Positions 1,354 through 30,066 of a DNA stretch of 32,000 bases are shown here, in pieces. The notes under the pieces are model-generated. The model saw only the letters and a list, made by a program, of their open reading frames with translations, was not told where the DNA came from and made no database searches. Numbering within the stretch: the stretch's first letter is position 1; every line of letters starts with the position of its first letter. Made by a program: the position numbers and the translations under genes. Origin of the DNA: Candidatus Electronema aureum (lineage in GTDB: Bacteria > Desulfobacterota > Desulfobulbia > Desulfobulbales > Desulfobulbaceae); assembly GCA_004284765.1 (NCBI GenBank), contig NQJD01000004.1:90001-122000 (forward strand), given 5' to 3'.

Positions 1354-1646
1354 GACGGGCACCTCTGTCTCTGGTAGTTGACTGATCGCTTTCATGCTCT
1401 TGCTGCATGAGAGCAGGCGCGCCCCGCAAGCGGCGGAAAGAGATACGCGGTCTTTCCTAACCGGGTACAATGGTTGCGCTGCAAGGGACTGAAAACAGGC
1501 GGCTGTGCGGACTATAGCTGAAGCTCTCGACAGCCTATGAAGTTGGACAAGGGGCGATTGTACCGCACTTCCCAGAAAAGATCAAGGCGCAGAAAATCCC
1601 CATCTATTTCCGGCATAAGCTGGGGTGTTGTCCGACTGAGATAAAG

Positions 1647-2312: not shown

Positions 2313-2336
2313 ATTTTCATCCCTATTCTCGTTATG

Positions 2337-8100: not shown

Positions 8101-9453
8101 TGCGCCGATATCTGTCACCTTGATGCCAAGGCTTTCTTTGGCCGCTTCTTCCAAGAACGAGCCGGTGCCTGCGCTGCACGCTTCGTTCATGGCGTAGTCG
8201 CTGGGCACACCGTTGGTGATGTAGGTGTATTTGGCATCCTGCCCGCCGATCTCAAAGATAGTGTCCACTTCGGGATCAAAATGCACCGCTGCCGTGGCGT
8301 GGGCGACAATCTCATTGATCACGCCATCAGTCAGGGCGTGCAGTCCGGCAATCTGTCTACCCGAACCAGTCACGCCCAAGCCCTCGATGACCACCGGCAC
8401 CTTGACCTGATCAGCCAAGGCACGATAGACATTCTTTGATGCGCCGATGGGATCGCCGTTGGTGCGCAGATACTCGGCAGCAATGATGGCCTTGTCCTTG
8501 CGCCGCATCAGTACGCCCTTGGTGGTGGTGGAGCCAACATCTAAGCCGAGTATGACCTGATCGCCAGCCTCAGCAATGCCCCGCTCTTGATGCTTGTAAT
8601 CCACCAGCTTCTGGCACTCGGACAAAGGCGGCAGAGTGGCCAGCCCAGCCCGATGCTCGGTGAAAATTGTATCCAACGAGATGAATTGCCTGCATTCATT
8701 GTCCAAGGCCCACAGTGCCGCGCCCACGGCCTCAAAGACAAAGGTCTCGTCTAAGATACGCAGCTCAGGCAAGGCTTCGCGCAAATAATGAATCATGGCC
8801 TTGTTGCCTGCGCAGCCACCCACCAGCATCACCGAATCCTTGGGCAGCTTTTTTAGCAGCTCCAGCACTTTGCCGGACATCATCTTGGATAAGCCAGCCA
8901 CTACTTGATTCTTGGGCACTCCTTTGTTGAGGGCATGGGTGCAGTCACTCTTGCAGAAGACTGAGCAGCGGCCCGACACCTTGTGCGGTTGCTCCGGCAA
9001 GTCCATTTCGCTGACTTCATTCAGGGTGATGGACATCCGCCCTAACTGCTGGAGGAAGAATTCACCAGTGCCAGAAGCACACTTGCTGCCGGTATGAATG
9101 TCGCTGACCCTGCCGTCCTCATCCAAATGATAGACCATGGTGGTCTCGCCGCCCGCGCTGATTACTACTCGGCAAGGCTGCTCTTTGGGCAGCAAAAAGG
9201 CAGCGGCTAACTCCACGGCCTCTGGTTCGGCAATACTGGAGAAGTTCAGCATATTCCTAAACTTGCGCCCAGTAGCCGCGATCTTGAATTCCTGAAGATT
9301 ATCAATCTGGCCAAGTAGCTCGCGCAGCGTCCGGCGCGGGTTGCCGTCATGGGCCTGAGAACTGGAAAAGAGGATATGGGTACCAGAGGCGTTCCGTTCC
9401 AGTCCCGCTAAGGAAATACTGGAGGCCCCAGCGCAGATGCCGAGAGATTTCAT
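5173..9453 (-). CDS. Giant fusion of two BcrAD/BadFG-type ATPase domains with DUF2229-type domains (2-hydroxyacyl-CoA dehydratase activase-related, 1426 aa)
   Basis: There are two acetate/sugar-kinase-fold ATPase modules: LGICAGASS...CASGTGEFF...RCSVFCKSD and LGLDVGSTTTKG...EIGGQDAKY...CSAGTGSFLEEAA. They are followed by a long C-terminal region typical of 'CoA-substrate-specific enzyme activase' fusions. The start is set at the ATG at 9451-9453 (MKSLGICAG); the track start at 9582 is a GTG, and the intervening 43 residues have no activase-like sequence. Confidence 0.8.
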   Translation of the reverse strand: MKSLGICAGASSISLAGLERNASGTHILFSSSQAHDGNPRRTLRELLGQIDNLQEFKIAATGRKFRNMLNFSSIAEPEAVELAAAFLLPKEQPCRVVISAGGETTMVYHLDEDGRVSDIHTGSKCASGTGEFFLQQLGRMSITLNEVSEMDLPEQPHKVSGRCSVFCKSDCTHALNKGVPKNQVVAGLSKMMSGKVLELLKKLPKDSVMLVGGCAGNKAMIHYLREALPELRILDETFVFEAVGAALWALDNECRQFISLDTIFTEHRAGLATLPPLSECQKLVDYKHQERGIAEAGDQVILGLDVGSTTTKGVLMRRKDKAIIAAEYLRTNGDPIGASKNVYRALADQVKVPVVIEGLGVTGSGRQIAGLHALTDGVINEIVAHATAAVHFDPEVDTIFEIGGQDAKYTYITNGVPSDYAMNEACSAGTGSFLEEAAKESLGIKVTDIGATALRATAPPNFSDQCAAFIGSDIKRSVQENVPLEDIVAGLVYSIGMNYNNRVKGSRPVGKKVFVQGGVCYNQAVPAALAGLTGKQVVVPSEAGLMGAFGVALEVERRMEQGLLKSEQYDLEELINREVEYGEPFKCGGGKDCDRGCEIARIKIKGKVYPFGGICNRYDNLIHNRKVEAGDYDLVIRRERRVFRDLAPVSPEDKRPTVGMNRSFLLNTYFPFFNAFFAALGFRLTLPAAQDPRGADQQGSSFCYPVEIAHNYIAALIAEKPDYIFLPQLKGFDLGEKDKTSCTCVLVQGEPYYLRTAFPALENSKNVIYQVLDFAKGYTADRDAIRDLAKQFGMDAAKADAALQAAIAAQDAFTEDIRAMGKQALADLEQNPDRFGVVVFGRPYNSFASAANKGIPAKFASRGISIIPFDMLPYWEEQLADDANMFWVMGQIILKGARFVEKHPQLYGAYITNFSCGPDSFIVSYFRSIMGRKPSLTLELDSHTADAGLETRIEAFLDIIRYYREIQKKGQPKQALGKIFHAAEVENRDGVTGVRTSDGDWLPMTDPRVRLLVPAMSRYATPLLAAAFNRVGIKAEVMPAADEEVLKLGRGNASCKECLPLQTTLGALLNSVKQRKPGEVLVYYMASAEGPCRFGQYHVYTKRVVEQQHIPDVAMFTPTAMNGYCNLSDSFLRAAWRAIIIGDIFDEMWPAVLAGAKDREEALEIFHAEHRAIQAVIHRRWPVLADQLSRSALRLRQIELKIPYAQMPKISLLGEIYVRHDPISLQHLIEKLAARGFVARTASIGEWMKYVDWLIGEGIEGEATPGFAIRRQIKKYFDQAIRKRLSLSGLFFYDGTPSPIEPVIEAGERFVSKQFTVETILTVGAALHEILHPSCGVISIGPFGCMPSRVAEAVLSEKFTTTEKKIQLGNSVAWESLLTKERKLPFLAIETDGNPFPQLIEARMEAFCLQAQRLNEQMLACGSQQH

Positions 9454-9661
9454 AGGCGTATGAGGGAGATCAGGTTCTATTGGTTCTACCGCTGATGAAA
9501 TGTTGAGCGGCGAACCAAAAAGTATTATAAGGCAGACAACAACGTGGGGCCGCCTTTCATCGTGCCAAATGTAGGAAAACACGTTCCACTTGAACAGGCA
9601 AGTTTTTTTTCAGGATGAGGGCGCAACACCGCTCGCAGCAGCGATGATGCGCTGATTTCTC

Positions 9662-9690
9662 TTGACGCGGGGCTGCAATTCAGTTAGACA
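9662..9690 (+). promoter_or_regulatory. Candidate sigma70-type promoter for the thiS leader
   Basis: TTGACG (9662-9667), a 17-nt spacer, then TAGACA (9685-9690), located just upstream of the TPP aptamer. The -10 element is weak, and this is a sequence-pattern call only. Confidence 0.3.
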
Positions 9691-9697
9691 CAGAGCT

Positions 9698-9795
9698 GCG
9701 TTTCACGGGGGGTGCTTCTGCGGAAGCTGAGAGAGGCGGCTGCCTCAACCCTTGGAACCTGATACGGGTCATGCCGTCGTAGGGACAGTGAGAAA
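9698..9795 (+). promoter_or_regulatory. TPP (THI-box) riboswitch aptamer
   Basis: All hallmark elements appear in order: GGGGUGC, CUGAGA, ACCC, GAACCUGAU, GGGUCAUGCCGUCG, UAGGGA. The DNA reads cacggggggtgcttctgcggaagctgagagaggcggctgcctcaacccttggaacctgatacgggtcatgccgtcgtagggacagtg. It lies upstream of thiS-thiG-thiH. Confidence 0.9.
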
Positions 9796-9838
9796 AGCCA
9801 TGCCGCGCCTTTCCCCCTTCCCTTCGTTTGTCCGTCCG

Positions 9839-9912
9839 GTAGGGGTGAACCTTGTGTTCACCCTGTTATATCACATCGGGCAAGATCGGGCGATCACAAG
9901 AATCGCCCCTAC
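9839..9912. repeat. REP-like hairpin doublet (REPIN-like), copy A, in the thiS 5' leader
   Basis: GTAGGGGTGAAC-CTTGT-GTTCACCCT ... GGGCGATC-ACAAG-GATCGCCCCTAC. These are two hairpins whose outer arms (GTAGGGG / CCCCTAC) are themselves inverted repeats. It is homologous to 13203..13291. Confidence 0.8.
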
Positions 9913-9952
9913 GTGTTGAATTTCCACCATATACCTGACTGTCTGGCATCTC

Positions 9953-10150
9953 ATGCACATAACCCTGAACGGCCAGTTCACGGCAACCGCCGCCCTCACC
10001 TTGCTTGACATGATCAATGAGCAAGGCTTTGTGCCGGATGCCGTGATTGCTGAAGTCAATTTCGAGCTGATTAAAAGAGACCGCTGGCAGCAGCACCTAC
10101 TCCACGAAGGAGATACGGTGGAGCTGCTCAGTTTTGTAGGAGGAGGCTGA
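9953..10150 (+). CDS. thiS: Sulfur-carrier protein ThiS (65 aa, C-terminal GG)
   Basis: MHITLNGQ...LLSFVGGG*. Size, the ubiquitin-like pattern, the terminal Gly-Gly and the position upstream of thiG all fit. No obvious SD sequence was seen. Confidence 0.88.
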
Positions 10151-10151
10151 A

Positions 10152-10943
10152 ATGGATGCAACAATGAACGCGGCAGACGATGCGCTGCTGCTCGGCGGGG
10201 TGCGCTTTGCCAGCCGCCTGCTCACCGGCACGGGCAAGTTTGCCTCGCACGACCTGATTGCCCCGATGCTCGCGGCCAGCGGCTCGGAGCTGATTACAGT
10301 GGCCTTGCGCCGGGTTGACCCCAAGGCAGGCGAGCAGGATATCCTGCGCTACATCCCGCCTTCGGTGCGGATATTGCCCAACACCTCTGGCGCGCGAACC
10401 GCCGAGGAAGCGGTGCGCATCGCTCGGCTGGCGCGGGCGGCAGGTTGCGGCGACTTCATCAAGATTGAGGTGATCACCGACAACAAATACCTGCTGCCGG
10501 ACAACGCCGAAACCCTGCGCGCCACTGAAATCCTTGCCAAAGAAGGCTTCATTGTCTTGCCCTACATGTTCCCTGATCTAACCGTGAGCAGGCAGTTGCA
10601 CGATGCGGGCGCGGCGGCGGTAATGCCGCTCGGCTCGCCCATCGGCAGCAACCGGGGCTTGGAGATGAAGGCCATGATCCGGCGGATGATCGAAACCAGC
10701 AAGCTGCCGGTGATTGTCGATGCAGGCATCGGCAAGCCCTCGCAGGCGGCGGAGGCAATGGAGATCGGTGCGGTAGCGGTGCTGGTCAACACCGCCATCG
10801 CCACCAGTAGCGACCCGGTCATGGCTGGCCGTGCCTTTGGCCTCGCGGTGCAAGCCGGGCGGCTGGCGCGATTAGCACAGCTAGCCGGGGAGAAAGACTA
10901 CGCCGAAGCCTCCTCGCCCCTGACCGGCTTTCTGCGAGCATAA
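10152..10943 (+). CDS. thiG: Thiazole synthase ThiG
   Basis: 263 aa with [46 protein letters not shown] and VDAGIG motifs. The start is 1 nt after the thiS stop. Confidence 0.95.
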
Positions 10944-10945
10944 GC

Positions 10946-12058
10946 ATGTCCTTCCTCAACGTTGTCCTTGCCTTAGAATCCTTTGATTTCGATGCCAGCC
11001 TGCACGCCATTACTGCTGCCGACGTAGAGCGCACGCTGTCCCGCGACGAGCAGCTTGACCGCCGCGACCTGCTCCACTTGCTCGCCCCGGCAGCGCAGCC
11101 GTATCTGGAGGAAATGGCCCAGAAAGCGCATCGTCTGACCTTGCAGCACTTCGGCAAGGTGATCGGCCTGTATGCACCGCTGTATATCTCGGATTACTGT
11201 GCGAACTCATGCACCTACTGCGGCTTCCATGTGGGCGTTGACTTTCCCCGCACCAAGCTGACGCTGGCTGAGATCGAGCAGGAAGCAGCAGCCATCGCCG
11301 CCACCGGAATCCGGCACATCCTTGTCTTGACTGGCGAAGCCCCGGCCCAGACTCCGCTGTCCTATCTGGCCGAGGCAGTGCATCGGCTGCGGGCGCATTT
11401 CTCGTCCATCGCCTTGGAGATTTTCCCGCTCGATGAGGCCGAATACCGCATCCTGCGCGAGGCCGGAGCCGATTCGCTGACCGTCTATCAAGAGGTCTAT
11501 GACCGCGCCATCTATCAGGAAGTGCATCCGGCAGGACGGAAAGCGGATTACGTCTGGCGTGTGCAAACCCCGGAGCGCGGCGCACGGGCAGGCTTCCGGG
11601 CGTTGAACTTAGGGCCGCTCTTTGGCCTTGGCCAACCCCGCCGCGAGGCATGGCTGGCCGCGCTCCACGCCCGCTGGCTGGAGGAGGAGTTCCCGGATGT
11701 GGAAGTCTCGCTCTCCTTGCCGCGCATGACCAAAGCAGCGGGCGCCATTGCCCCGCGCTCGCTGATGTCGGACAGCGAGTTCGTCCAATTCATGCTGGCG
11801 TGGCGGCTGTTTATGCCACGGCTCGGCATCACCATCTCCACCCGCGAGGCCCCCGCGTTCCGTGACCGGCTGGTCCAGCTTGGCGCAACCCGCTTCTCCT
11901 GTGGCTCGAAGACTGGCGTGGGCGGCTACGCGGTCAGGAAGCAGGACGAAGCCCCGGTGCAGTTCGCCGTGACCGATAACCGCAGCGTCGAGGAAGTGGC
12001 AGCGATGCTCCGCCGGAGCGGTTATCAGCCGATTTTCAAGGACTGGGAGCTGGTGTGA
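10946..12058 (+). CDS. thiH: 2-iminoacetate synthase ThiH (radical SAM tyrosine lyase)
   Basis: 370 aa with the radical-SAM CANSCTYCGF motif. It sits directly downstream of thiG and has the ThiH-like C-terminal half. Confidence 0.9.
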   Translation: MSFLNVVLALESFDFDASLHAITAADVERTLSRDEQLDRRDLLHLLAPAAQPYLEEMAQKAHRLTLQHFGKVIGLYAPLYISDYCANSCTYCGFHVGVDFPRTKLTLAEIEQEAAAIAATGIRHILVLTGEAPAQTPLSYLAEAVHRLRAHFSSIALEIFPLDEAEYRILREAGADSLTVYQEVYDRAIYQEVHPAGRKADYVWRVQTPERGARAGFRALNLGPLFGLGQPRREAWLAALHARWLEEEFPDVEVSLSLPRMTKAAGAIAPRSLMSDSEFVQFMLAWRLFMPRLGITISTREAPAFRDRLVQLGATRFSCGSKTGVGGYAVRKQDEAPVQFAVTDNRSVEEVAAMLRRSGYQPIFKDWELV

Positions 12059-12060
12059 TC

Positions 12061-12175
12061 GTGATACGTATGATGCCGCTGTCGTGATAGGTATCACGAC
12101 GATGCCATGATACGTATGATGATTTTGCCGTGATACTCGATGCGGCAGATTCGGGATACGTATCCTTTTTGGGGA
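12061..12175. repeat. Tandem repeat array 1, exact 23-nt period, 5 units
   Basis: Rows from 12061, 12084, 12107, 12130 and 12153: GTGATACGTATGATGCCGCTGTC / GTGATAGGTATCACGACGATGCC / ATGATACGTATGATGATTTTGCC / GTGATACTCGATGCGGCAGATTC / GGGATACGTATCCTTTTTGGGGA. The array contains a perfect palindrome GTCGTGATA-GG-TATCACGAC (12081-12100) and the palindrome GGATACGTATCC (12154-12165). Confidence 0.8.
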
Positions 12176-12186
12176 TGGATGGGTGT

Positions 12187-12211
12187 GCGGGCGAATCTTG
12201 TATTCGCCCGC
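12187..12211. repeat. REP-like single hairpin (third site of the REP family)
   Basis: GCGGGCGAAT-CTTGT-ATTCGCCCGC. It has the same CTTGT loop and the same GGGCGAA/TTCGCCC stem core as the hairpins at 9842 and 13206. Confidence 0.7.
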
Positions 12212-12345
12212 CTTGTTGCCTGCAACCACCAAGCGATCGGTATGGGAAGAGGGATTGCGCGAAAGAGAATATTGTCTGAGAACGGATAGTTAAGGATTTA
12301 GAGATGGTGTAAGAAGTACGATATTCCGCATATGAGGCTGTTTCT

Positions 12346-12951
12346 ATGAATATTTTTACGGCAGCAGTGACAGGATTTACCATTGTGGTCAAGAAAGTCG
12401 GGATTGTCTTCAAAGCAGTCCTGACCGGGATACGAATTCTGATCACACATATCATCATTTTCGTTGTCCGTGCAATAGAAGCGATTGTTGATGCCTTTCT
12501 ATCATTCTTGAAGTTAGTTTGGACGCAGATAGTCAAAGTCGTCAATTGGCTCTTCAGAATGTACTTATCAGAGTCAGGTATCGTTTCTTTGGCTCAGGAA
12601 TCAGTTAGCTTCGCAATCAGGCTGCGCTGGGGCGTTGTAATAATCTCTGGTTTGTATGCGATTTATAAATATTTTGGCGTAACTTATTTACTACTGGCAG
12701 TTGTTGTTTGTTGTGCATTGATTTTAATTGGCTATTCAGAAGCAAAAAAAGAGGAGGAGAAATGGAATTCTATTATAGATAGAATCAATGAAGTTATTGC
12801 ACGTTATTCAAGATATACAATTCGTTGTGCTATCCTTCTGTTCTCAGCTTATATTTTGTACATGCAGATTCCATTGAAAGGCTACAATAGCCAGACAATA
12901 ATGGAAAAATATATTGATCAGCAGCGCACAGAGAATGCAATACAACCCTGA
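12346..12951 (+). CDS. Hypothetical multi-pass membrane protein (201 aa), AT-rich
   Basis: The ATG has GAGG 8 nt upstream. There are several long hydrophobic segments (FTAAVTGFTIVV, ILITHIIIFVV, WGVVIISGLYAIY, LLLAVVVCCALILIGY, AILLFSAYILY). No family was recognised. The composition is clearly more AT-rich than the flanks. Confidence 0.5.
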   Translation: MNIFTAAVTGFTIVVKKVGIVFKAVLTGIRILITHIIIFVVRAIEAIVDAFLSFLKLVWTQIVKVVNWLFRMYLSESGIVSLAQESVSFAIRLRWGVVIISGLYAIYKYFGVTYLLLAVVVCCALILIGYSEAKKEEEKWNSIIDRINEVIARYSRYTIRCAILLFSAYILYMQIPLKGYNSQTIMEKYIDQQRTENAIQP

Positions 12952-13531
12952 CATTCATCATCGCCGCTCGATCCGCTTGCAGGGATATGATTATTCTCAG
13001 GATGGCGCATATTTCATCACCATCTGCGTTCAAGGCAGGGAATGTCTGTTCGGGGATATTGCAGAAGGAGGGATGCGGATGAATGAGGCGGGGAAGATGA
13101 TTCTTCAGATATGGAATGAATTGCCGCAGCGTTTCAGCAATGCGGAGATAGATATTCTTGCGGTCATGCCAAATCATCTGCACGGAATTATATTCTTGCA
13201 CCGTAGGGGCGAACCTTGTGTTCGCCCTGCATCACATTGTATTTCCTCCTTGCCATCAAACACCAAGGGCGATCATAAAGATCGCCCCTACGGAACCTTG
13301 CCTGATTCCATAGGCCGTCTTGTCCAAGCATTCAAATCCATCACCACCAATCAATATATCCACGGCGTGAAGAAACAGGGATGGAGACCATTTCCCGGCA
13401 GGCTTTGGCAGCGCAATTATTGGGAACATATCATCTGTGATGAAACGGAATTGGAGAAAACCCGTGAATATGTCCAGAATAATCCGGCTCAATGGGCACT
13501 GGATGAATTGAATCCCTTTTACGCGCCATGA
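12935..13531 (+). CDS. REP-associated tyrosine transposase-like protein (RAYT / IS200-like Y1 HUH transposase family)
   Basis: HUH motif in MPNHLHGII and a catalytic-Tyr context in LWQRNYWEHII. The N-terminus YFITICVQGRECLFG is typical of COG1943-type proteins. The ATG at 12935 is used because the track start at 12914 is a TTG. The ORF contains REP doublet copy B internally. Confidence 0.8.
   Translation: MQYNPDIHHRRSIRLQGYDYSQDGAYFITICVQGRECLFGDIAEGGMRMNEAGKMILQIWNELPQRFSNAEIDILAVMPNHLHGIIFLHRRGEPCVRPASHCISSLPSNTKGDHKDRPYGTLPDSIGRLVQAFKSITTNQYIHGVKKQGWRPFPGRLWQRNYWEHIICDETELEKTREYVQNNPAQWALDELNPFYAP
13203..13291. repeat. REP-like hairpin doublet, copy B, inside the RAYT ORF
   Basis: GTAGGGGCGAAC-CTTGT-GTTCGCCCT ...37-nt spacer... 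GGGCGATC-ATAAA-GATCGCCCCTAC. It is translated in frame as RRGEPCVRP...GDHKDRPYG. Confidence 0.8.
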
Positions 13532-14037
13532 CCGCCGCCGAACTCATCCGTCTCCTGAAGCTGGAGCCGCACCCGCTGGAAGGCGGCTATTTCCGCCGCA
13601 TTTACGAATCATCCCTGCGCTGCGACTGCGGCTATGGCAGCAGGCCGCTGCTGACTTCGATCTACTACCTGCTCACGCAGGAAAGCCCGGTCGGGTTGCT
13701 GCATAAGAACAGATCAGATATCCTGCATTATCATCAGCGCGGCGCGGCTGTCAAATACATCATGATATCCCCGGAGGGCAGTCTGTCAGAGCACATCCTC
13801 GGCCCGGACATTCAGCATGGCGAGACCCTGCAATTGCTGGTTCCGGGCGGCTGGTGGAAAGCGTCGCGGCTCTGCGAGGGTGAATATGCTTTGATCAGCG
13901 AGGCGGTCGCGCCGGGTTTCGACTATGCGGACAATGAGATTGCGACGGAGGAGATGGTGCAGCGGAATTACTCAGAGATGCTTGATGTGCTGAACAGGTG
14001 TATCAGGCAGAGACCTTCTGAGGATGCAGATTTATGA
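13528..14037 (+). CDS. Cupin-fold protein (DUF985-like)
   Basis: 169 aa. LEPHPLEGGYFRRIYES, then LLxxxxxSxxHxxxxSDILHYHxG, then WWKA. This matches the DUF985 cupin pattern as I recall it. Its ATG overlaps the RAYT stop as ATGA. Confidence 0.7.
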   Translation: MTAAELIRLLKLEPHPLEGGYFRRIYESSLRCDCGYGSRPLLTSIYYLLTQESPVGLLHKNRSDILHYHQRGAAVKYIMISPEGSLSEHILGPDIQHGETLQLLVPGGWWKASRLCEGEYALISEAVAPGFDYADNEIATEEMVQRNYSEMLDVLNRCIRQRPSEDADL

Positions 14038-15760: not shown

Positions 15761-15785
15761 TATGGGACTAACTTCAGGAGAACAA

Positions 15786-17069
15786 ATGACACAAACATAC
15801 ACCACCCAGATGGACGCGGCCCGCAAAGGCATCATCACCCCGCAGATGCGCGAGGTCTTGGCCAATGAGGTTATCTCTGAACAGCTTTTGCTGGAGCGGG
15901 TGGCGCAGGGACGCATTGCCATCCCGGCCAATAAGCACCACCACAATCTCAAGGCAGCCGGGGTTGGTCAGGGTTTGAAAACCAAGATCAACGTCAATCT
16001 GGGCGTGTCCAAGGATGTCTGCTCCTTCGAGGGCGAGATGAACAAGGCTCGCTTGTCGCTCAAATACAAGGCTGATGCGATCATGGACTTGAGCGTCTCC
16101 GGCGACACCGAAGGCTTCCGCAAGCGACTGGTGGCGGAAGTGCCGGTGATGATCGGCACGGTGCCGATCTACGACACCATTACCCGTACTGGCAAGCCCA
16201 CAGAACAGATCACGGTGGAGGACTGGTTTGAGACGGTGCGCATTCACGCTGAGAACGGCATAGATTTCATCACCATCCATGCGGGATTGAACCAGAAATG
16301 CGCCAGCAGTCTGCGCCTCAACAAACGGCTTTGCGGTATTGTCAGCAGAGGCGGAGCGATTCTGTATGAATGGATGGCGAAGACTGGTCAGGAGAATCCC
16401 TTCTACGAATACTTTGACCGACTCTTGGACATTTGCGAGCAGCACGATGTCTGCATCAGCCTTGGCGACGGTCTCCGGCCTGGCGCGATCAAGGATTCGA
16501 CCGATGCGCCGCAGATCGAGGAGCTGATCACGCTCGGCGAGCTGACCAAGCGGGCTTGGGCGCACAACGTGCAGGTGATGATCGAGGGGCCGGGCCATGT
16601 TCCCCTGCACGAGGTGGAGATGAACATGAAGCTGCAAAAGAAGCTCTGTCACCACGCGCCGTTCTATGTGCTCGGCCCGCTGGTCACGGACATCGCGCCG
16701 GGTTATGATCACATAACCTCAGCCATCGGCGGCGCGCTGGCTGCCATGCACGGGGCGGATTTCCTCTGCTACGTCACGCCGGCGGAACACCTGCGCCTGC
16801 CTTCCGCTGACGACGTGAAGGAGGGCATCATCGCCTCCAAGATCGCTGCTCATGCGGGCGACTTGGCCAAAGGCATTCCCGGCGCGGCGGACTTGGATCA
16901 CGCGATGAGCGCGGCACGAGGCAGCTTGAATTGGGAAGGCCAGTTCAACCTTGCCCTTGACCCGGAGAAAGCGCGGGCCTACCGCGCCTCCTCTGAACCT
17001 GCGGACAAAGGCGTTTGCACCATGTGCGGCGACTTCTGCTCGATGAAGCGGCTGAAGGGGCTGCTGTAA
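15786..17069 (+). CDS. thiC: Phosphomethylpyrimidine synthase ThiC (short form, radical SAM)
   Basis: Strong ThiC sequence throughout ([67 protein letters not shown]-terminal [11 protein letters not shown]). The start is set at the ATG at 15786, preceded by AGGAGA 6 nt upstream. An in-frame ATG at 15762 is the alternative. Confidence 0.95.
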
Positions 17070-18890: not shown

Positions 18891-19103
18891 GCTGGCCCGC
18901 AACCCAAGCTGTGACCTATAACACCTTGAAAAATCCATGCTTCCCCGCATGTGGTATATTTTTGCTCGGCAGCCGCTCCATCCTTGCCACTTGGCGCACC
19001 TCGTCAACCAAGCTGTTTCGAGGGATACATTCTGACCTGAAGCGACTCGTCCAACGGCGACAGCGGGGCATCCGGCGAATCCAAGCGTCCGCTCAGGGAA
19101 ATG

Positions 19104-19273
<170 letters not shown>

Positions 19274-19277
<4 letters not shown>

Positions 19278-20242
19278 TTCGGTATACTGCACTGCCGTGC
19301 TGCCCGCACCTGCTCCAATTCCTCGCGGTCTTTCTCCAAATCAGGATGGCCGATATCCTCTTCAATCTGCACGGCCCGACTGATGTATTCCTCTGCCTTG
19401 GCAAGATCACCTTGGTTTTGGCAGGTGAGTCCAATGTTCCAGCAGGTGAAGGCTTCATGTGATTTATCACCGACCTCCCGTGCTATCACCAAAGCTTGTT
19501 CCCAATACTCTATGGCCTTGGTAGTATTGCCCTGCTTATCGTAAATCCTAGCGATGTTGTTCAGGTTTGCACCTTCCACGATCTTGTTGCTAACCTCGAT
19601 GTTGACAGACAGGCTCTGTTTAAGATAGGTCAAGGATGTCTCATAGTCGCCTTGGGCATCATAAACTTGACTGATATTGTTCAGGGTCATTCCTTCCCCT
19701 TCCCGGTCGCCAATCTCTCGCATGATTGTCAGACTCTGCTCAAGATACTGCAAGACTTGCTCGTGCCTGTTCTGCACATGGTAAATTTCGGCGATGTTGT
19801 TCAGCGTCCACGCTTCTCCCTGCCTATCGGACAGCTCGCGGCGTATCGACAAGCTCTGCTCATAGCAGGCCAACGCCTTCGCTAATTCGCCACGCTTCCG
19901 GCAGGTATAGCCCAGACTATTTAGGCACCAGCCTTCATCCTTGCGGTCGCCTGCCTGCCTTGCTGCATTAAGTCTCATAGTTATGGCAGCAATGTCCTCT
20001 GTCCAATATCCCTGCCGGTCTAAGTAAGTGCTGATTGCTCGCACCAAGACTTTTATCTCCTGCCACAGTTGGCTGTTCGAGCAACTCTTCATCACCCGCA
20101 AGCATTGCACCCGTTCCTTGTCCAAGCGGGCATAGCCTGCCGCACCACGAGCACTCTCTTTTTCTGCCAATGCGGTATAGTGTGCAGCAAGCCGCTGGCA
20201 TACTCCGGCAAGCTCGGCACTTGAAGCCGCATGTTCAGGCAT
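19274..20242 (-). CDS. TPR-repeat protein, paralogue 1 (322 aa), NB-ARC-associated sensor-like module
   Basis: Repeated 40-residue-class TPR units (W/TLNNIxxIYxxQGxYExALxYxxQSLxIxREIGDRxGE). The ATG at 20240-20242 ([11 protein letters not shown]...) matches paralogue 2. The 3' end and stop codon lie inside the valS-fragment junction. Confidence 0.85.
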
Positions 20243-20260
20243 TGACGGGACTCTTATGAT

Positions 20261-20329
20261 CACACTATGACCTCTCTTTCGGAGACACTATGGTCACTCC
20301 TGCGGAGATACTCTGGTGTCTCCTGCGAA
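20261..20329. repeat. Tandem repeat array 3, exact 23-nt period, 3 units, between the two TPR paralogues
   Basis: Rows from 20261, 20284 and 20307: CACACTATGACCTCTCTTTCGGA / GACACTATGGTCACTCCTGCGGA / GATACTCTGGTGTCTCCTGCGAA. Neighbouring units match at 17-18 of 23 positions. Confidence 0.8.
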
Positions 20330-20332
20330 GAG

Positions 20333-21313
20333 CTACGCCTCTCCGCCCTTTCCTTGTTCCACTTGCCGCGCTGCCCGTACCCGTGCCAATCCCTCGCGGT
20401 ATTTCTCCAAGGAAGGATGACCGATCTGCTCTGCAAGCTGCACGGCTTGGCTGATGTATTCCTCTACCTTGGCAAGGTTGCCGAGGTCTTTGCAGATGAG
20501 GCCGATGTTCCAAAACGACTCTGCTACTCCAACCCTGTCGCCAATCTGTTGATATATCGATAAGGCTTGTTCCAAATACTTCAACGCCTTAGCAGGCCTG
20601 CCAAAGGCACGGTAGATCATAGCGATGTTGTTCAGGGTTTGTCCTACTCCGATTTCATCGCCAGCCTCCCGCCTGATAGGTAGGCACTGTTCATAACAGG
20701 TCAAGGCTTGCTCGTAGTCGCCTTTGGTGTCATAAACCCCACCGATATTATTCAGGGTCGTACCTTCTCCCTTCCGGTCGCCGATCTCCTGCCAGATGCT
20801 CAGACTCTGCTGATATTGTTCCAAGGCCTGCTCATACCTGCCCTGTGCATGGTAAATCGCGCCGATGTTGTTCAAGGTTGCGCCTTCTCCCTGCTTGTCT
20901 TCCACCTCGCGATGTATCGGCAGGCTTTGCTTATAATAGGTGAGAGCCTTCTCACGCTCGCCGCGCCTTTCACAGGTATAGCCAAGCTCATTCAGGCACC
21001 AAGCTTCATCCCTGCGGTCTTCAACTTGTTGAGCCGCAGTGAGTTGCATTTTTAGAGCAGCTAGTCGATCTGCCCAATGACCCTGCCGGTCAAGGTACTT
21101 CTGGATTGACCAGACCAACGCTTGCACCTCCTGCCACAGCTTGCTTGCCAAGCACCTCTCTATCAACCGCAAGCACTGCACCCGCTCCTTATCCAAGCGG
21201 GCATACCCCGCCGCGCCACGAGCACTCTCCTTTTCTGCTAATGCAGTGTAGTGCGCAGCAAGCCGCTGGCATACTGCGGTCAGTTCCGCACTTGAAGCCG
21301 CATGTTCAGGCAT
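20333..21313 (-). CDS. TPR-repeat protein, paralogue 2 (326 aa), overlapping the NB-ARC gene stop
   Basis: It has the same architecture as paralogue 1. The ATG at 21311-21313 overlaps the NB-ARC stop (21306-21308) by 8 nt (...ATTGCAAATGCCTGAACATG...). Confidence 0.85.
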   Translation of the reverse strand: MPEHAASSAELTAVCQRLAAHYTALAEKESARGAAGYARLDKERVQCLRLIERCLASKLWQEVQALVWSIQKYLDRQGHWADRLAALKMQLTAAQQVEDRRDEAWCLNELGYTCERRGEREKALTYYKQSLPIHREVEDKQGEGATLNNIGAIYHAQGRYEQALEQYQQSLSIWQEIGDRKGEGTTLNNIGGVYDTKGDYEQALTCYEQCLPIRREAGDEIGVGQTLNNIAMIYRAFGRPAKALKYLEQALSIYQQIGDRVGVAESFWNIGLICKDLGNLAKVEEYISQAVQLAEQIGHPSLEKYREGLARVRAARQVEQGKGGEA

Positions 21314-22466
21314 TTGCAATGGTCTCCCACATGGATTTGGCATGAACTGTCAGGAGCGCGTGCATCTGAAAGCGCACCTCGCCATCCTCCTGATACGGCT
21401 CCAGCAGTCCGCGCTTCTCCAGCTCGCGGATTGCCGGACGCGGATCATCAACACCCCACGCAGCTGCTATGGCAGCACGATCAAAGGTTGCCGGTTTCGG
21501 CGCAAAGACTCCCAAGAAGGCAAACTGCTTCCGGGTCAGCGCATCAAGACGGTCTGTGCTTTTCCGTAGCAGTGCAGTCACAGAGGGTGTGGTCTGGCCG
21601 GATAAATCAGCGCGATCTGCGGGCGCAGCTTCTTGCAGCAGTCGGGTGCCTTCAGTCAGCTCGTCCAGCAACTCCCTGACTCCCCAGCCCATAGTTGCTT
21701 CGGCAGCAAGCAGGCTACCAGCAACACTTAACGCCAGCGGCATACCGTCTAACTCCTGCACCAGCTGCCGCACCCCTTGCTCATCCTGCGCCACAGACTC
21801 AGGCGAGAGCTGGCGGATCAGCTCGATGGAGTCCTCTTCCGACAGCACCAGCAGGCGGTACACCGCCTTGTCCGGCAAGCCGAGCTTCCGGGCCACATCA
21901 GGCTCACGGGTGGTGAGCAGCGTTCGGCACGCCCGCCCGCCGACAAGGAAGGGCTGCGCGTCAGCGGCCTGCCACACGTCATCTATGATCAGCAGCATCC
22001 GGCGGTCGCGCAGCAGTCCGGCGAGCCGATTCTGCCGCTCTTCAATGCGCTGATACCGCTGCGGATCATCACCGAAGGCAAGCAGCCATTGCCCCAGTCC
22101 TGCCAAGGGATTGGGCGACATGCCCAAGGCCGTCCACAGCACGCCATCAGGGAACGCCTTCTTCACTTCGGCATCATGCGCCATAGCTGCCGCCAGCGTG
22201 GTCTTGCCAATGCCAGGCCAGCCCCGCACACTGGTGATCAAGGTTGTTGACGGCTCGCCAAAGAGACGCTGCCGCAGCGCAGCCATGTCGTTGTCACGCC
22301 CGATGAACAGGTTGGGTGGGGCTGGCAGTAGACTTGGAGAAGGAAAAAGCACAGGCTGCTTGCCGTCTGTATATACGTTAATCATTGTGGCATGGTCTTT
22401 GACCACGGTTTGACCGCCACTATTGCTGTCGTAGTTATCACCATGCACCTCAGTCTGGTTGCTCAT
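21306..22466 (-). CDS. NB-ARC (STAND/AP-ATPase) NTPase, 386 aa, with no fused effector or repeat sensor domain
   Basis: Walker A GWPGIGKTTLA, Walker B MLLIIDDVW, LLTTR, and the GMPLAL motif, followed by a winged-helix-like end (FAFLGVF...MHALL). GGGGGAAGGA lies immediately upstream of the ATG. The N-terminal 32 aa is a short motif shared with the upstream small ORF. Confidence 0.9.
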   Translation of the reverse strand: MSNQTEVHGDNYDSNSGGQTVVKDHATMINVYTDGKQPVLFPSPSLLPAPPNLFIGRDNDMAALRQRLFGEPSTTLITSVRGWPGIGKTTLAAAMAHDAEVKKAFPDGVLWTALGMSPNPLAGLGQWLLAFGDDPQRYQRIEERQNRLAGLLRDRRMLLIIDDVWQAADAQPFLVGGRACRTLLTTREPDVARKLGLPDKAVYRLLVLSEEDSIELIRQLSPESVAQDEQGVRQLVQELDGMPLALSVAGSLLAAEATMGWGVRELLDELTEGTRLLQEAAPADRADLSGQTTPSVTALLRKSTDRLDALTRKQFAFLGVFAPKPATFDRAAIAAAWGVDDPRPAIRELEKRGLLEPYQEDGEVRFQMHALLTVHAKSMWETIANA

Positions 22467-22486
22467 TCCTTCCCCCTGTCATTATC

Positions 22487-22876
22487 TCATGCTGCCCAAT
22501 TCGTCCATTGCTCACCACACCAGATTAACCCCTGACCGAGCAGATTGCCAACAGCAACCGCCGCTTTAACAGTCTTTGAGCTTTCCTCCAAGATGGAGAC
22601 CGCTTCTTTCAGACTGTCTGCTATTCTTTTCCGGTCAGGAGGATTCCTTCTCGCCAGTCTCAACGCACCATTAACCTCGTGCTCCACATCCTCCTTGACT
22701 TCCTGCGCAACAGGCAGGTTTGAAAGCTCCTGCTTTGCTTTATCCAGAAGGGCAAGCAGCTCTTCAACCGGTGCCTGCTGGCTTATATTGATCTGCACAG
22801 CGTTGTCTTTGGCGATGTACTGCGGCCCGCCGCTACTTTCAAAGCTGTCTCCGTGAATAATCTTGATGTCACTCAT
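22487..22876 (-). CDS. Small protein (129 aa): shared N-terminal motif + helical region + C-terminal hydrophobic segment; candidate effector or adaptor of the NB-ARC system
   Basis: The ATG is preceded by AAGGGGGAA 7 nt upstream. The N-terminus MSDIKIIHGDSFESSGGPQYIAKDNAVQINIS aligns without gaps to the NB-ARC N-terminus. The C-terminus TVKAAVAVGNLLGQGLIWCGEQWTNWAA is hydrophobic and aromatic. No known family was recognised. Confidence 0.7.
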   Translation of the reverse strand: MSDIKIIHGDSFESSGGPQYIAKDNAVQINISQQAPVEELLALLDKAKQELSNLPVAQEVKEDVEHEVNGALRLARRNPPDRKRIADSLKEAVSILEESSKTVKAAVAVGNLLGQGLIWCGEQWTNWAA

Positions 22877-27677: not shown

Positions 27678-29084
27678 TCAAAAATACACTCCTTTAATCT
27701 CCGCCGTACCGCCGTCCTGCACACCGCTTAAAATCCGCTTTGCCACCTTCCACGCCTCCTTGTGCATATCATTAATGCCGATGCCCTGCCAGCCAAAGCC
27801 GCAAATATGGAGGCTGTCGAGCATCTCGTGCATCTGGTTTCGCCAGGCAAGCAGGGCCGGATAGCCTTCCTCCATCTGCGGGATGCCCCATCTTGGTCGC
27901 AGCACCCGGCTGAAGACTGGCGGATCGGGCAGCTCCATCAGCTGCTTGATGTCTTCATAAGCCCGCGCCACGATTTCCTCATCCGGCAGTTCCAGCCGCT
28001 CTGGGTGCCTGCGCCCGCCGACTAAAGTCTCCACTAATAGATGTCCTTCCGGGGCGCGTCCTGGGAACATGTGCGAGGAGAAGAGGGTGCCGAGAGCGAA
28101 ACGCTGTTCCTGCTCCGGGGCGAGATAACCAAAGCCAAAGGGAACCTGCGCCTTGTCAGCGGCAAAGCCCATCGCCACGGTGGCGAGCTTGGCTTCCGGG
28201 ATAGACTGCATAGGCGGTTCCGGTAAACCTGCGCCGACCAGCAATTCAAGGCAACGATTAACCGGCAGAGCGATGATCAGGTGGCGGGCGTGCAATTCAA
28301 GCTGGCCGGTGCGCACCAGCCAGCCGTTGCCGGTCTGCTCGACACTGCGGGCAGCGGTGCGGTACATGATTTCCTGATTGGGAATCAGCTTGGCGGCCAT
28401 TGCCTGCGGCAAGCGGGCCATGCCGGTGCGGAAGCTGGTCATCGCGGGCAGCCCTTTCCGCTTCTTGTCCTTCTTTTCTTTTCTTGCCGCGAGCATTTTG
28501 GCGATGCCGCCGCGCAGCACCGAGCCATGTTCAAGCTCTAATTTCCGCAGGCCGGGCATCACGCCTTCTATTTTCAGCCGCTCAATATCGCCCGCGTAGG
28601 TGCCGGTGAAGACGGCATCGGCAAAAGGCAGCATCGCCTTGCCGAAACGGTGTTCGATCCACTCGGCAACGGTCGGCTCATCTGGCAAAGGCTTTTTCCA
28701 TAAGTCCGCCATGACTCGAAACTTAGCGGGCCACGACATCAGCGGTGCTTTAATGATCTTGCCCGGACTTTGCGGGATCAGATTGAGCTTGCCGTCTAAA
28801 CAAATATAACGGACAAACTTCGACAGCGGGGCTTTTTCCACCTCATTCGCCAAGCCAGCCTCATGAATCAACACCCGGCTTTCAAGACAGTTGTCCAAAA
28901 AGCCATGCGGCCCGCCTTCAGCCAAATAACCTTCCTCCAAATGCGAGCGCACGGCCCCGCCGGGCTGTTCTTCCCGCTCAATGACTAACAGAGAAATATC
29001 CGGCTGCTTGTGCTTGAGGAAGGTGGCGGCGGCAAGGCCGGACAAACCGGCTCCGATGATCAAGACATCTTTGGATGAATTCAT
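27678..29084 (-). CDS. FAD-dependent oxidoreductase of the protoporphyrinogen oxidase (HemY/PPOX) family
   Basis: N-terminal dinucleotide fold DVLIIGAGLSGLAAA...VIEREEQPGG, PPOX-like length, and a C-terminal GWQGIGINDMHKEA. The ATG at 29084 is used because the track start at 29099 is a TTG. Confidence 0.65.
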   Translation of the reverse strand: MNSSKDVLIIGAGLSGLAAATFLKHKQPDISLLVIEREEQPGGAVRSHLEEGYLAEGGPHGFLDNCLESRVLIHEAGLANEVEKAPLSKFVRYICLDGKLNLIPQSPGKIIKAPLMSWPAKFRVMADLWKKPLPDEPTVAEWIEHRFGKAMLPFADAVFTGTYAGDIERLKIEGVMPGLRKLELEHGSVLRGGIAKMLAARKEKKDKKRKGLPAMTSFRTGMARLPQAMAAKLIPNQEIMYRTAARSVEQTGNGWLVRTGQLELHARHLIIALPVNRCLELLVGAGLPEPPMQSIPEAKLATVAMGFAADKAQVPFGFGYLAPEQEQRFALGTLFSSHMFPGRAPEGHLLVETLVGGRRHPERLELPDEEIVARAYEDIKQLMELPDPPVFSRVLRPRWGIPQMEEGYPALLAWRNQMHEMLDSLHICGFGWQGIGINDMHKEAWKVAKRILSGVQDGGTAEIKGVYF

Positions 29085-29162
29085 GGCGGGCAGAATCAAG
29101 GAGAGGATTATCGCTGTTAAACAAACGGCAGGTTTAAGTTTAGCAGTGTTTTCTTGGAATTA

Positions 29163-29999
29163 TTATTGTCTACCGGAATGTTGTTTGTAATAACTGTACA
29201 ATTTTCCCCTAAATATCTTCTCGTAGGTTAAATGAAATCCCTGTTGATCAGAAATGAAAGTTTTTGATCGTTTGAATTCGCTAACGATGCTTTCAGCACA
29301 TGATTTATCTAATTGCTTTGGTAAGGGAACCTCGCTCTTGCCAAGATGCCACTGAAAACAGCCAGCCACGAAATCAGCGGCAAGGAGAAGAGGTTCTTCT
29401 TGCTCCGTTTTTAGGGCAACATTAGACATTTTAATCTCTAAGTTATATTTCTCTTTTAGCTTTGAACGATTGTGATAATCGTGACACATATCATAAAACA
29501 TGTCGGCGTTTTCTTCTCCTTGAATATCAGTGTCGCAGATCATGGTAATATCTAATATAGAATATCCTGCTGGAGTTATTATCTTTGGCAATCCCTGGCA
29601 TCGTAAACAGTAGCCTACTGCTTGCGTGCTTCCTCTGCGAAAGGAATCATAGCGAATAATAGTTGAAGGCTTAAGAAAGCCAATACGAGATTTTTCCGCA
29701 GACGCAATAACACTATGAAACTGCATTCCTTCATTCCAAAAGTTTTCCCACATTGGTTGCATTTTCTCTATTTGCATCACCGAAATAGCCATCGCATTAT
29801 CGAGAATAGCCCTGACCATTTTTGTGGCGGTACTGTTGTCTATATCACGCCACTTTTTTCCAACGATGCTTATTGAGTTCCGTGCTTCCTCGACTTCTGC
29901 CGTATCAACTATGATTCCTCCTACTGTATAGTATGAATGATTAGCCGCTTCTTTTGCGATGATGCCTGAACCATCTAAAAACAATGAATATTTTTTCAT
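29163..29999 (-). CDS. Hypothetical protein, DUF3800-like (278 aa), AT-rich
   Basis: The N-terminus YSLFLDGSGI...YYTVGGIIV resembles the DUF3800 start (y.D.SG...f.lgg), and the C-terminus LLLAADFVAGCF resembles its l.lAD..a motif. This assignment is from memory of the family pattern only. The composition is clearly AT-rich relative to the neighbours. Confidence 0.45.
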   Translation of the reverse strand: MKKYSLFLDGSGIIAKEAANHSYYTVGGIIVDTAEVEEARNSISIVGKKWRDIDNSTATKMVRAILDNAMAISVMQIEKMQPMWENFWNEGMQFHSVIASAEKSRIGFLKPSTIIRYDSFRRGSTQAVGYCLRCQGLPKIITPAGYSILDITMICDTDIQGEENADMFYDMCHDYHNRSKLKEKYNLEIKMSNVALKTEQEEPLLLAADFVAGCFQWHLGKSEVPLPKQLDKSCAESIVSEFKRSKTFISDQQGFHLTYEKIFRGKLYSYYKQHSGRQ

Positions 30000-30066
30000 G
30001 ACAATAGGATGGTTAAATCATTCCGCTCGCAAAATTCAGCTCCAGCCCCACCTTCTCCTCCCCATC

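Follow-up and report, generated by a model that had tools for sequence, protein, structure and literature searches.

A split NB-ARC receptor with tandem arm-TPR genes and a small motif-bearing partner in a cable bacterium: a candidate multi-gene NLR-type conflict module

Introduction

NOD-like receptors (NLRs) and other NTPases of the STAND class (signal-transducing ATPases that have numerous domains) are usually described as single chains whose repeat sensor keeps their own NTPase inhibited in cis, and the literature states the fusion of these modules in one polypeptide as the norm. Among the closest described systems are bacterial NLRs that are paired with Bell-domain proteins through bacterial amyloid signalling sequences (BASS), motifs of ~25 aa in which G, N, Q, V and I are over-represented and K, P and L under-represented (Dyrka et al. 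2020, bioRxiv 10.1101/2020.01.06.895854). Bab/Agp, with the BASS11 motif, belongs to the same kind (Ibarlosa et al. 2024, bioRxiv 10.1101/2024.11.07.622273), and the described amyloid signalling effectors all carry the motif C-terminally. A related principle is the coupling through effector-associated domains (EADs) in NTP-dependent conflict systems (Kaur, Burroughs, Iyer and Aravind 2020, PMC7159879; 2021, PMC8195603). Here we describe a locus in a stretch of 32,000 nucleotides from Candidatus Electronema aureum (contig NQJD01000004.1, positions 90,001 to 122,000; hereafter the window), where four genes downstream of valS encode a small 129-aa protein, an NB-ARC ATPase and two tetratricopeptide repeat (TPR) proteins, TPR1 and TPR2, which begin with a constant arm (arm-TPR). 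We consider it fairly probable that they form a functional multi-gene NLR-type conflict module, serving regulated cell death or anti-phage defence, with the three roles placed on separate polypeptides.

The window matches the closed genome OW818638.1 of Ca. Electronema aureum, a multicellular cable bacterium. The original prediction, made from the letters of the window, had placed pairs of NLRs with Bell/BASS proteins among the nearest precedents, and in our comparison they do rank among the closest known systems. It had also called the three-part split unfamiliar, which holds for the split receptor: the literature searched contained no description of a split NB-ARC with tandem arm-TPR gene arrays. 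It does not hold for the motif shared between an NLR and its neighbour, already published for BASS and EAD. Nothing of relevance emerged from literature searches on HetE-N, on PDC-M14, and on NLRs or defence systems of cable bacteria. Since the shared-motif principle has been published as BASS, Bab/Agp and EAD, the novelty of the locus is that of a variant and not of a new category.

Results and discussion

The NB-ARC protein and its clade lack a repeat sensor

The four co-oriented genes follow valS on the - strand, and their coordinates, read from the sequence, reproduce exactly the tight packing and the gaps that had been reported for them (Table 1). The NB-ARC protein matches PF00931 over residues 58-259 with 91.2 bits (cut-off 23.5). 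It carries the Walker A motif GWPGIGKTT, the Walker B motif LLIIDDVW and GMPLAL, and its winged helix contains RFQMHALL with an MHD-like histidine. G82, K88, T89, D162, D163, P243, L244 and H369 are invariant across 36 NB-ARC homologues, in agreement with the earlier statement that the NTPase motifs are complete. The protein was also said to end just past the winged helix, and its stop codon indeed comes 14 residues after RFQMHALL. The AlphaFold2 (AF2) model shows a complete module of nucleotide-binding domain, helical domain 1 and winged-helix domain (NBD-HD1-WHD), with a predicted TM-score (pTM) of 0.77. Its best structural matches in Foldseek are ADP-bound Apaf-1 (1z6t, E = 1.4e-15, TM 0.68), the NB-ARC of NRC1 (8bv0, TM 0.68/0.76) and 3sfz.

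This end point is the rule among its relatives. Homologues number 984 at E < 1e-20, and our census of the clade comprises the 120 best matches, with identity down to 47% and several of them from Chloroflexota metagenome-assembled genomes. In 118 of the 120 the stop lies 9-20 residues (median 11) past the winged-helix motif. The 120 proteins are 265-637 aa long, none with a TPR Pfam domain, and their length variation is confined to the N-terminus, where bDLD1, EAD7, trypsin, HNH, NERD, HTH or BTAD domains are found. The canonical NLR feature, a repeat sensor on the NTPase polypeptide, is absent from the window protein as it is from 118 of its 120 homologues. The NB-ARC gene is under purifying selection, with a ratio of nonsynonymous to synonymous divergence (dN/dS) of 0.12-0.18. 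The PADLOC models for Avs and bNACHT gave no match for the NB-ARC protein, and only mad1 and mad8 matched marginally (E above 0.003). A genome scan with the NB-ARC protein found only 2 close loci, and tblastn against plasmids returned only distant cyanobacterial NB-ARCs (32% identity).

The TPR array is encoded separately and twice, as had been predicted, with TPR_12 found in two genes at E ~1e-45 each; the PADLOC models that match the TPR proteins are generic TPR models only. In TPR1, the constant arm spans codons 1-48 and is followed by a variable TPR array. All cable-bacterial cassettes begin with M[PS]EHxASSAEL..., and the TPR proteins within each sampled locus have the same structural start boundary and share an N-terminus that is conserved inside that locus. 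Tandem TPR genes accompany NB-ARC genes in several related loci (designated by L numbers). Four follow the NB-ARC gene in L025, two NB-ARC genes each have TPR genes behind them in L027 (at least two for the locus), at least three follow an HNH-NB-ARC gene in L028, and five or six cassettes follow in L029, where the NB-ARC protein is 81% identical to that of the window.

A small protein shares a pair-specific motif with the NB-ARC protein

The 129-aa protein encoded between valS and the NB-ARC gene begins with a disordered motif rich in G, N, Q and I (residues 1-33; AF2 predicted local distance difference test, pLDDT, <50). The NB-ARC N-terminus is disordered as well (pLDDT <50 over residues 1-45), its motif comprising residues 1-32. 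The first 31 residues of the two proteins align with a BLOSUM62 score of 76, compared with 19 on average and at most 49 for shuffled sequences; none of 2000 shuffles reached 76, and the shared motif noted in the original prediction is well founded. Across loci, cognate motif pairs score 51-116 against ~20-30 when shuffled, again with 0/2000 shuffles reaching the observed values. In addition, the motif exists in three types, and the small protein and the NLR change type together. Type A is found in the window, L030, L017 and L001 (NLR2), type B in L007 (TFNITGSTVTVAEKIDVINQ / TNISNSIVNIVEEQGTVNQ), and type C in L020, with GDQNIAQGDGAIGKQVN on both proteins. Whether the small gene always sits next to an NLR of the same motif type had been asked at the outset; this is the case in six of eight loci and not in L003/4 and L005. 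Relative to the bundle that follows it, the N-terminal segment of the family is enriched in N (2.8x), G (2.1x), I (1.6x) and Q (1.4x) and depleted in L (0.14x), K (0.42x) and P (0.55x), with V not enriched. This composition bias matches the one published for BASS.

The small ORF might have lacked conserved homologues or a conserved linkage to NB-ARC genes, and it lacks neither. Cable bacteria contain 23 close homologues (52-94% identity, dN/dS 0.05-0.09), and a profile search of 1.84 billion cluster representatives found 91 relatives. An NB-ARC gene lies within two genes of the small gene in every locus with enough flank (the window, L001, L003/4, L005, L007, L017, L020 and L030). A metagenome scan with the small-protein alignment found only 5 loci.

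Residues 37-119 form a four-helix bundle in the AF2 model (helices 37-52, 58-75, 82-100 and 105-119, pLDDT ~90). The last helix holds a nearly invariant glycine zipper, GNLLGQG, and is followed by the tail WCGEQWTNW (WCGEQWxxW in the family). The hydrophobic C-terminal segment, for which insertion into a membrane had been suggested, is helix 4 of this bundle and not an obvious transmembrane helix in the model, which leaves the suggestion unsupported. Pfam offers no family for the small protein up to E = 10, and its EAD, bDLD and EACC models match neither the small protein nor the NB-ARC N-terminus at E up to 10. A sequence-profile search of the PDB and Foldseek against the PDB and BFVD found no meaningful relative, only generic four-helix bundles. 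The PDB sequence matches DP221 and PP507 were set aside as de novo designed proteins. In PADLOC, 30/30 tested members of the small-protein family match positions ~153-259 of the 267 positions of PDC-M14B (best E = 8e-11); the window protein matches with E = 6e-4, to the C-terminal part of the model only. From these alignments, the small protein and PDC-M14B share a domain but are not the same protein. The claim that the small protein belongs to no recognised family is therefore right for Pfam, but it overlooks the C-terminus of this PADLOC candidate.

The slot of the small gene is not always filled by the same protein. In L029, an orthologous valS-linked island, it is occupied by a HetE-N (Bell-like) protein, which starts with MD-, has a hydrophobic first helix and ends in a glycine-rich motif, SGSGAIAQNGGVAAGAGGVAIGGNVQGGINMP. 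This C-terminal motif scores 116 against the N-terminus of the NLR, and by its sequence features L029 has the canonical Bell/BASS layout. An hhalign comparison of the small-protein family with the L029 HetE-N protein was negative (probability 0.15%). The small protein and the Bell-like effector are positionally equivalent, and we weigh this as the most telling point for an executioner analogy. In L008 (Ca. Electronema sp. PJ), a hicA/hicB-like pair on the opposite strand (2909-3306; judged by sequence) replaces the small gene, and the NLR of this locus carries a type C motif.

An extra gene of 91-92 aa lies between the small gene and the fused NLR in Ca. Electrothrix and overlaps the NLR start by 4 nt. 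The N-terminus of the window NB-ARC protein is closer to the motif of the 91-aa protein (82-84) than to that of the small protein (76). Therefore, the window NB-ARC gene may be a fusion of the 91-aa protein's motif to a bare NB-ARC. A cyanobacterial-looking contig (L022, 3814-10337) holds a pentapeptide-repeat operon whose products terminate in short, related motifs such as IMGDKRVIEAGRDYLE and IMGNQTKKIAGRDFFE. The motifs are found again there immediately ahead of the four-helix bundle in two proteins, one with a CHAT domain and one with pentapeptide repeats and a long hydrophobic stretch that is possibly membrane-spanning. L022 looks like a motif-linked network with no NB-ARC gene in view.

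A proposed mechanism with sensors acting in trans

The module architecture, the conserved split, the selection on the genes, the co-variation of the motifs, the synteny and the Bell-like replacement in L029 are observed features of these loci. The mechanism that we propose for them draws on analogy with Apaf-1, plant NLRs, MalT, HET-S/NWD2 and Bab/Agp. TPR1 and TPR2 would be alternative sensor subunits. Their ~48-aa arm, which corresponds to the segment after the winged helix in fused NLRs, would dock in trans onto the NB-ARC protein, holding it closed and ADP-bound. A ligand on the TPR array would then lead to nucleotide exchange and oligomerisation of the NB-ARC protein, and the oligomerised hub would cluster its disordered ~30-aa N-terminal motif. 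The clustered motif might recruit the matching N-terminal motif of the 129-aa protein or template it in an amyloid-like manner. The four-helix bundle would change its state as the output, most likely killing the cell as a membrane-perturbing executioner like Bell, HeLo and Bab. We infer this effector role of the small protein from its position and from analogy.

Several observations weigh against this reading. The motif of the window partner is N-terminal, not C-terminal as in BASS/Bell pairs. The last helix of the small protein is amphipathic rather than a clear transmembrane segment, which leaves a membrane role of the C-terminal segment unsupported, and neither structure nor profile comparison relates the bundle significantly to Bell/HetE-N, HeLo, MLKL or any PDB entry. 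In some relatives the motif-plus-bundle unit stands C-terminal to pentapeptide repeats, a CHAT domain or a dCTP-deaminase-like domain, and the fusions to the latter two fit an adaptor rather than a killer. In L003/4 and L005, both from Electrothrix, the motif of the adjacent NLR is type C-like, and the matching, type A-like motif is borne by the extra 91-aa protein. One member of the NB-ARC clade, in L023, has no TPR neighbour. The first-position TPR gene is broken in L007 (by an insertion sequence, IS), in L029 (Ta) and in L030 (by an in-frame stop). Finally, only about nine genomic contexts were sampled.

The fusions bring up a different role for the bundle, that of a homotypic adaptor, a chaperone or an inhibitor of the motif acting as a safety catch, with the output lying elsewhere or consisting of non-lethal signalling. 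We regard this as rather unlikely. The CHAT, dCTP-deaminase-like and pentapeptide proteins to which the unit is fused are possible effectors, the bundle resembles no known pore former and has no transmembrane helix, and the HTH or BTAD N-termini in the NB-ARC clade suggest that some relatives are regulators. However, the window island holds no other effector candidate, and a Bell-like HetE-N protein occupies the slot in L029. In addition, other clade members carry direct effectors (HNH, NERD, trypsin) at the N-terminus, which marks this end as an output position.

The arm is constant and the TPR arrays vary

Purifying selection on the arm of the proposed sensors is strong. The arm's dN is 0.02-0.25 (mostly <=0.19), and 0.02-0.09 between the copies of the window, L008 and L007. 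For TPR1, the constant region has a dN of 0.02-0.15 and a dS of 0.46-1.12, compared with a dN of ~0.3 in the variable region. Since dN in the arm is low despite a dS of 0.4-1.4, the arm is held by selection on the protein and not by gene conversion alone; pure gene conversion as the cause of the constant region is excluded by the dS of 0.4-0.8 found there. TPR1 and TPR2 are 61% identical as proteins with a dS of ~0.8, which excludes a recent tandem duplication. Their gapless alignment shows 87% DNA identity in the first ~120 nt and 57-82% (mostly ~70%) thereafter. The per-column entropy of the TPR cassettes follows an ordinary scaffold/variable pattern and is not decisive.

The pattern of conservation could also arise by cassette switching. 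In that case only the TPR gene coupled to the NB-ARC gene would be used, and the downstream copies would form a silent library, exchanged through recombination in their constant 5' and conserved 3' parts, like pilS cassettes or Rhs/CDI orphan modules. The identity between the window and L008 is mosaic in the way that this predicts: ~90% in DNA across the NB-ARC gene and the first ~130 nt of TPR1, ~63% past nt ~21185, and back at ~90% in the last ~100 nt. The constant region has a dS lower by a factor of 2-3, and TPR2 is orthologous to cassette L029_Tb, which stands at another position of its array (variable region dN 0.14, dS 0.62). Another cassette of the same locus, L029_Te, retains a degenerate copy of the NB-ARC 3' end, hairpins resembling repetitive extragenic palindromic (REP) elements lie between cassettes, and truncated cassettes occur. 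On the other hand, the downstream copies have their own ATG, intact frames and, as for the TPR genes in general, a dN/dS of 0.16-0.38. The constant-region dS is still high enough to place the conservation mainly at the protein level, the broken copy is usually the first and not a downstream one, and several intact TPR genes are kept in distant loci too. We therefore hold the silent library to be improbable and rank it below one hub with several functional trans-acting sensors that would be shuffled by recombination.

Some further features of the arrays were seen. In L007 (Ca. Electronema halotolerans), the IS element (9282-10652) contains a 456-aa transposase-like ORF, judged by reading the ORF, and disrupts the first TPR gene where its constant region ends. 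In L029, two TPR cassettes are chained by the same 8-nt stop/start overlap that joins NB-ARC and TPR1. The REP-like hairpins of 20-23 nt (GGAGACAC...GTGTCTCC and GAGTCAGCAGAGTGACTCC) lie between or after TPR genes and in some relatives stand in tandem; their role could be in termination, in RNA stability or in recombination. Other loci of cable bacteria encode TPR-only proteins (440-500 aa, 47-50% identity to TPR1), which may be sensors for other sensor-less NB-ARC hubs.

The junction between NB-ARC and TPR1 is conserved

Five cable-bacterial loci (the window, L007, L008, L029 and L030) share the stop/start junction ATGNCTGA unchanged, and a GGGAG(G) Shine-Dalgarno-like element precedes it in all five; in L029 the junction reads ATGTCTGA. 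The gene structure is identical in OW818638.1 and in two independent Logan assemblies, so that the split is no sequencing artefact. With three assemblies and five loci in agreement, sequencing error is excluded as its cause. Fused NB-ARC-TPR genes of 647-706 aa adjoin small-protein homologues in Ca. Electrothrix, and the window NB-ARC and TPR1 proteins are collinear with residues 1-349 and 344-660 of one such fused protein. The NTPase part is 28% identical to it and the TPR part 51%. Thus, the fused Electrothrix genes belong to another NB-ARC lineage.

A programmed +1 shift at GCC-UGA-A might join NB-ARC to TPR1 through a junction peptide ...ETIANAEHAASS..., making the active receptor a conventional fused NLR produced at low frequency. 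Skipping the U of the stop codon would indeed place GAA CAU GCG in the TPR1 frame, and the overlap is conserved among cable bacteria. However, GCC to CCU is a poor re-pairing in the P-site, conservation extends to a start codon and a Shine-Dalgarno-like element just upstream, in distant clade members the two genes are instead 10-18 nt apart or overlap by 1 nt, and TPR2 and the further cassettes could not be fused by such a shift. We consider recoding very improbable.

Least credible of all is decay, by which a frameshift at 21306-21313 would have broken a former NB-ARC-TPR fusion and left a duplicate TPR fragment, non-functional as a split system: the fused, collinear genes in Electrothrix and the disrupted TPR copies of some relatives speak for it, but it is largely refuted by the distant lineage of those fused genes, the common end point of the window clade, the junction and Shine-Dalgarno-like element kept in five loci, the dN/dS of both NB-ARC and TPR genes, the strongly constrained arm and the recurrence of split arrays in distant loci. 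The original prediction had named a decayed pseudogene, revealed by fused orthologues, as what would overturn it; with a uniformly sensor-less clade, purifying selection and separate tandem TPR genes, this is not what we find. As far as sequence comparison goes, the split is an old, widespread and conserved design and not gene decay.

Arrival of the island and features of the window

A 174-nt copy of valS nt 1537-1713 directly adjoins TPR2 on its downstream side and contains the TPR2 stop codon. Displaced 3' remnants of valS are also present in L007 (1164 nt) and, as a short piece, in L030, and L029 is valS-linked as well. No integrase gene is present at the island. The 3' third of valS appears to have come with the island, which fits a Campbell-type insertion of DNA that would have brought in both the module and a replacement 3' end for valS.

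A consensus scan showed no promoter-like or terminator-like sites between valS and the small gene, and valS probably supplies the promoter of the module. The putative bidirectional terminator hairpin past the valS remnant, predicted by the same scan, likely ends both the valS-to-TPR2 transcription unit and the convergent pheA/tyrA gene. Elsewhere in the window, patches of low G+C content (36-43% against a background of ~56%) at ~4000-5000, ~12000-13500 and ~29000-30000 may be other acquired segments. thiC is a single ORF of 435 aa at window positions 15762-17069 and 427 aa long in a Logan assembly, and is divided into two genes (284 and 148 aa) in the closed genome (L012 15808-17092), probably by an assembly frameshift error.

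Table 1. Positions of the module, its parts and related features in the window and in related loci
Locus	Feature	Position	Strand	Evidence or remark
Window	valS, 916 aa	25651..22901	-	ORF and translation; tRNA-synt_1 family in the source genome
Window	Small gene, 129 aa	22876..22487	-	starts 24 nt past valS
Window	Small protein, N-terminal motif	22876-22778	-	residues 1-33
Window	Small protein, four-helix bundle	22768-22520	-	residues 37-119
Window	NB-ARC gene, 386 aa	22466..21306	-	20 nt past the small gene; Pfam NB-ARC E = 8e-26
Window	NB-ARC protein, N-terminal motif	22466-22371	-	residues 1-32
Window	Walker A	22223-22197	-	GWPGIGKTT
Window	Walker B	21995-21972	-	LLIIDDVW
Window	GMPLAL	21746-21729	-	
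Window	NB-ARC/TPR1 stop/start overlap	21306..21313	-	ATGCCTGA; GGGAG Shine-Dalgarno-like element ~10 nt upstream of the ATG
Window	TPR1, 326 aa	ATG 21313, end 20333	-	TPR_12 E = 2e-45; start overlaps the NB-ARC stop by 8 nt
Window	TPR1, constant arm	21313-21170	-	codons 1-48
Window	TPR1-TPR2 spacer, REP-like pair of 20-nt inverted repeats	20281..20323		repeat scan, 75% complementary
Window	TPR2, 322 aa	ATG 20242, end 19274	-	TPR_12 E = 5e-46; 90 nt past TPR1; arm-TPR paralogue
Window	Displaced valS fragment (nt 1537-1713, KMSKS region)	19104..19277	-	Pfam tRNA-synt_1 E = 4e-20; 88% identical to window valS
Window	Bidirectional terminator-like hairpin	18936..18951		consensus scan only
L029	HetE-N gene	1225-1659		paired with the NB-ARC gene
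L029	NB-ARC gene	1640-2830		product 81% identical to that of the window
L001	Extra 91-92-aa gene	8414-8689		type A-like N-terminal motif and ~60 helical residues
L003	Extra 91-92-aa gene	8414-8692		as in L001
L005	Extra 91-92-aa gene	6080-6355		as in L001
L008	REP-like hairpins	~5690-5880		
L007	REP-like hairpins	~11600-11760		
L030	REP-like hairpins	~4090-4290		
L007	Displaced valS 3' remnant	12727-13893		
L030	Displaced valS 3' remnant	4296-4505		

Significance and comparison with known systems

If the proposed reading is true, a large clade with separate, multi-copy sensors would have genetically uncoupled recognition from oligomerisation, and its range of recognition would be widened by adding small sensor genes and not whole receptors. 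It would also offer a simple two-protein system for the control of an NB-ARC switch by an arm and sensor. The small protein would give motif-based signalling of the amyloid-like kind a second type of partner. Searches limited to effector C-termini and Bell domains would miss it, because its motif is N-terminal and its bundle new. The locus extends NLR-type machinery to the cable bacteria (Desulfobulbaceae), which fits the link of such machinery with prokaryotic multicellularity. More tentatively, and with somewhat less than even confidence, we suggest that the locus represents a widespread but apparently undescribed NLR class with one hub and many sensors. In this class interchangeable arm-TPR proteins, forming an evolving array, would serve a sensor-less NB-ARC in trans, each of them with a constant docking peptide and hypervariable repeats, and the cable-bacterial hub would signal via an amyloid-like tag to a new four-helix-bundle executioner of inverted topology relative to Bell and HET-S. 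Prokaryotes would then have an equivalent of the sensor/helper NLR networks.

Among the known systems, CED-4, Apaf-1 and NRC share the NBD-HD1-WHD fold with the window NB-ARC. Like CED-4, the window protein is an NTPase without its own repeat sensor and would be controlled by another protein, and a single hub would take input from several sensors, as in sensor/helper NLR networks and NAIP/NLRC4. The likeness is structural and conceptual only (~20% identity), and in the window the part of the trans sensor would fall to bare arm-TPR proteins instead of full NLRs or Bcl-2-like inhibitors. PDC-M14, whose protein B is the one matched above, is a candidate phage-defence system, and its likeness to the small protein is limited to the C-terminal domain. 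The fused STAND proteins (Avs/AVAST, bNACHT and the Electrothrix NLRs) have the same order of N-terminal output, central STAND NTPase and C-terminal repeat sensor, and TPR1 is close to the TPR half of the Electrothrix NLRs. In the window, however, the proposed sensor lies on separate, multi-copy polypeptides and the putative output on a third.

The EAD systems resemble the locus in placing a small non-enzymatic module on both a core NTPase and its neighbour, with the copies of adjacent genes most alike. In both, variable modules are swapped between close relatives, and the EAD systems are enriched in multicellular prokaryotes. Relatives of the window NB-ARC even carry EAD7 or bDLD1 at the position of the motif. 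The element shared in the window is, however, a disordered motif and not a folded EAD.

The BASS/Bell pairs have in common with the window an adjacent, co-oriented small helical protein that shares a motif of ~25-30 aa with an NB-ARC/TPR receptor. In the window motif, G, N, Q and I are frequent and L, K and P rare; the motif is pair-specific and located at the N-terminus of the receptor, and its amyloid character is putative, from composition. The multicellular host is a further likeness, as is the canonical layout of L029 with its Bell-like HetE-N protein and C-terminal motif. Besides the N-terminal position of its motif, the window partner differs in being an unrelated four-helix bundle with its hydrophobic helix last and not first. 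In addition, the window receptor is split into an NB-ARC protein and separate TPR proteins, and its host, a member of the Desulfobulbaceae, lies outside the phyla reported for BASS. The locus differs from the published shared-motif systems in three features: the split receptor with its arm-TPR arrays, the partner that combines an N-terminal motif with a new four-helix bundle, and the Desulfobulbaceae host.

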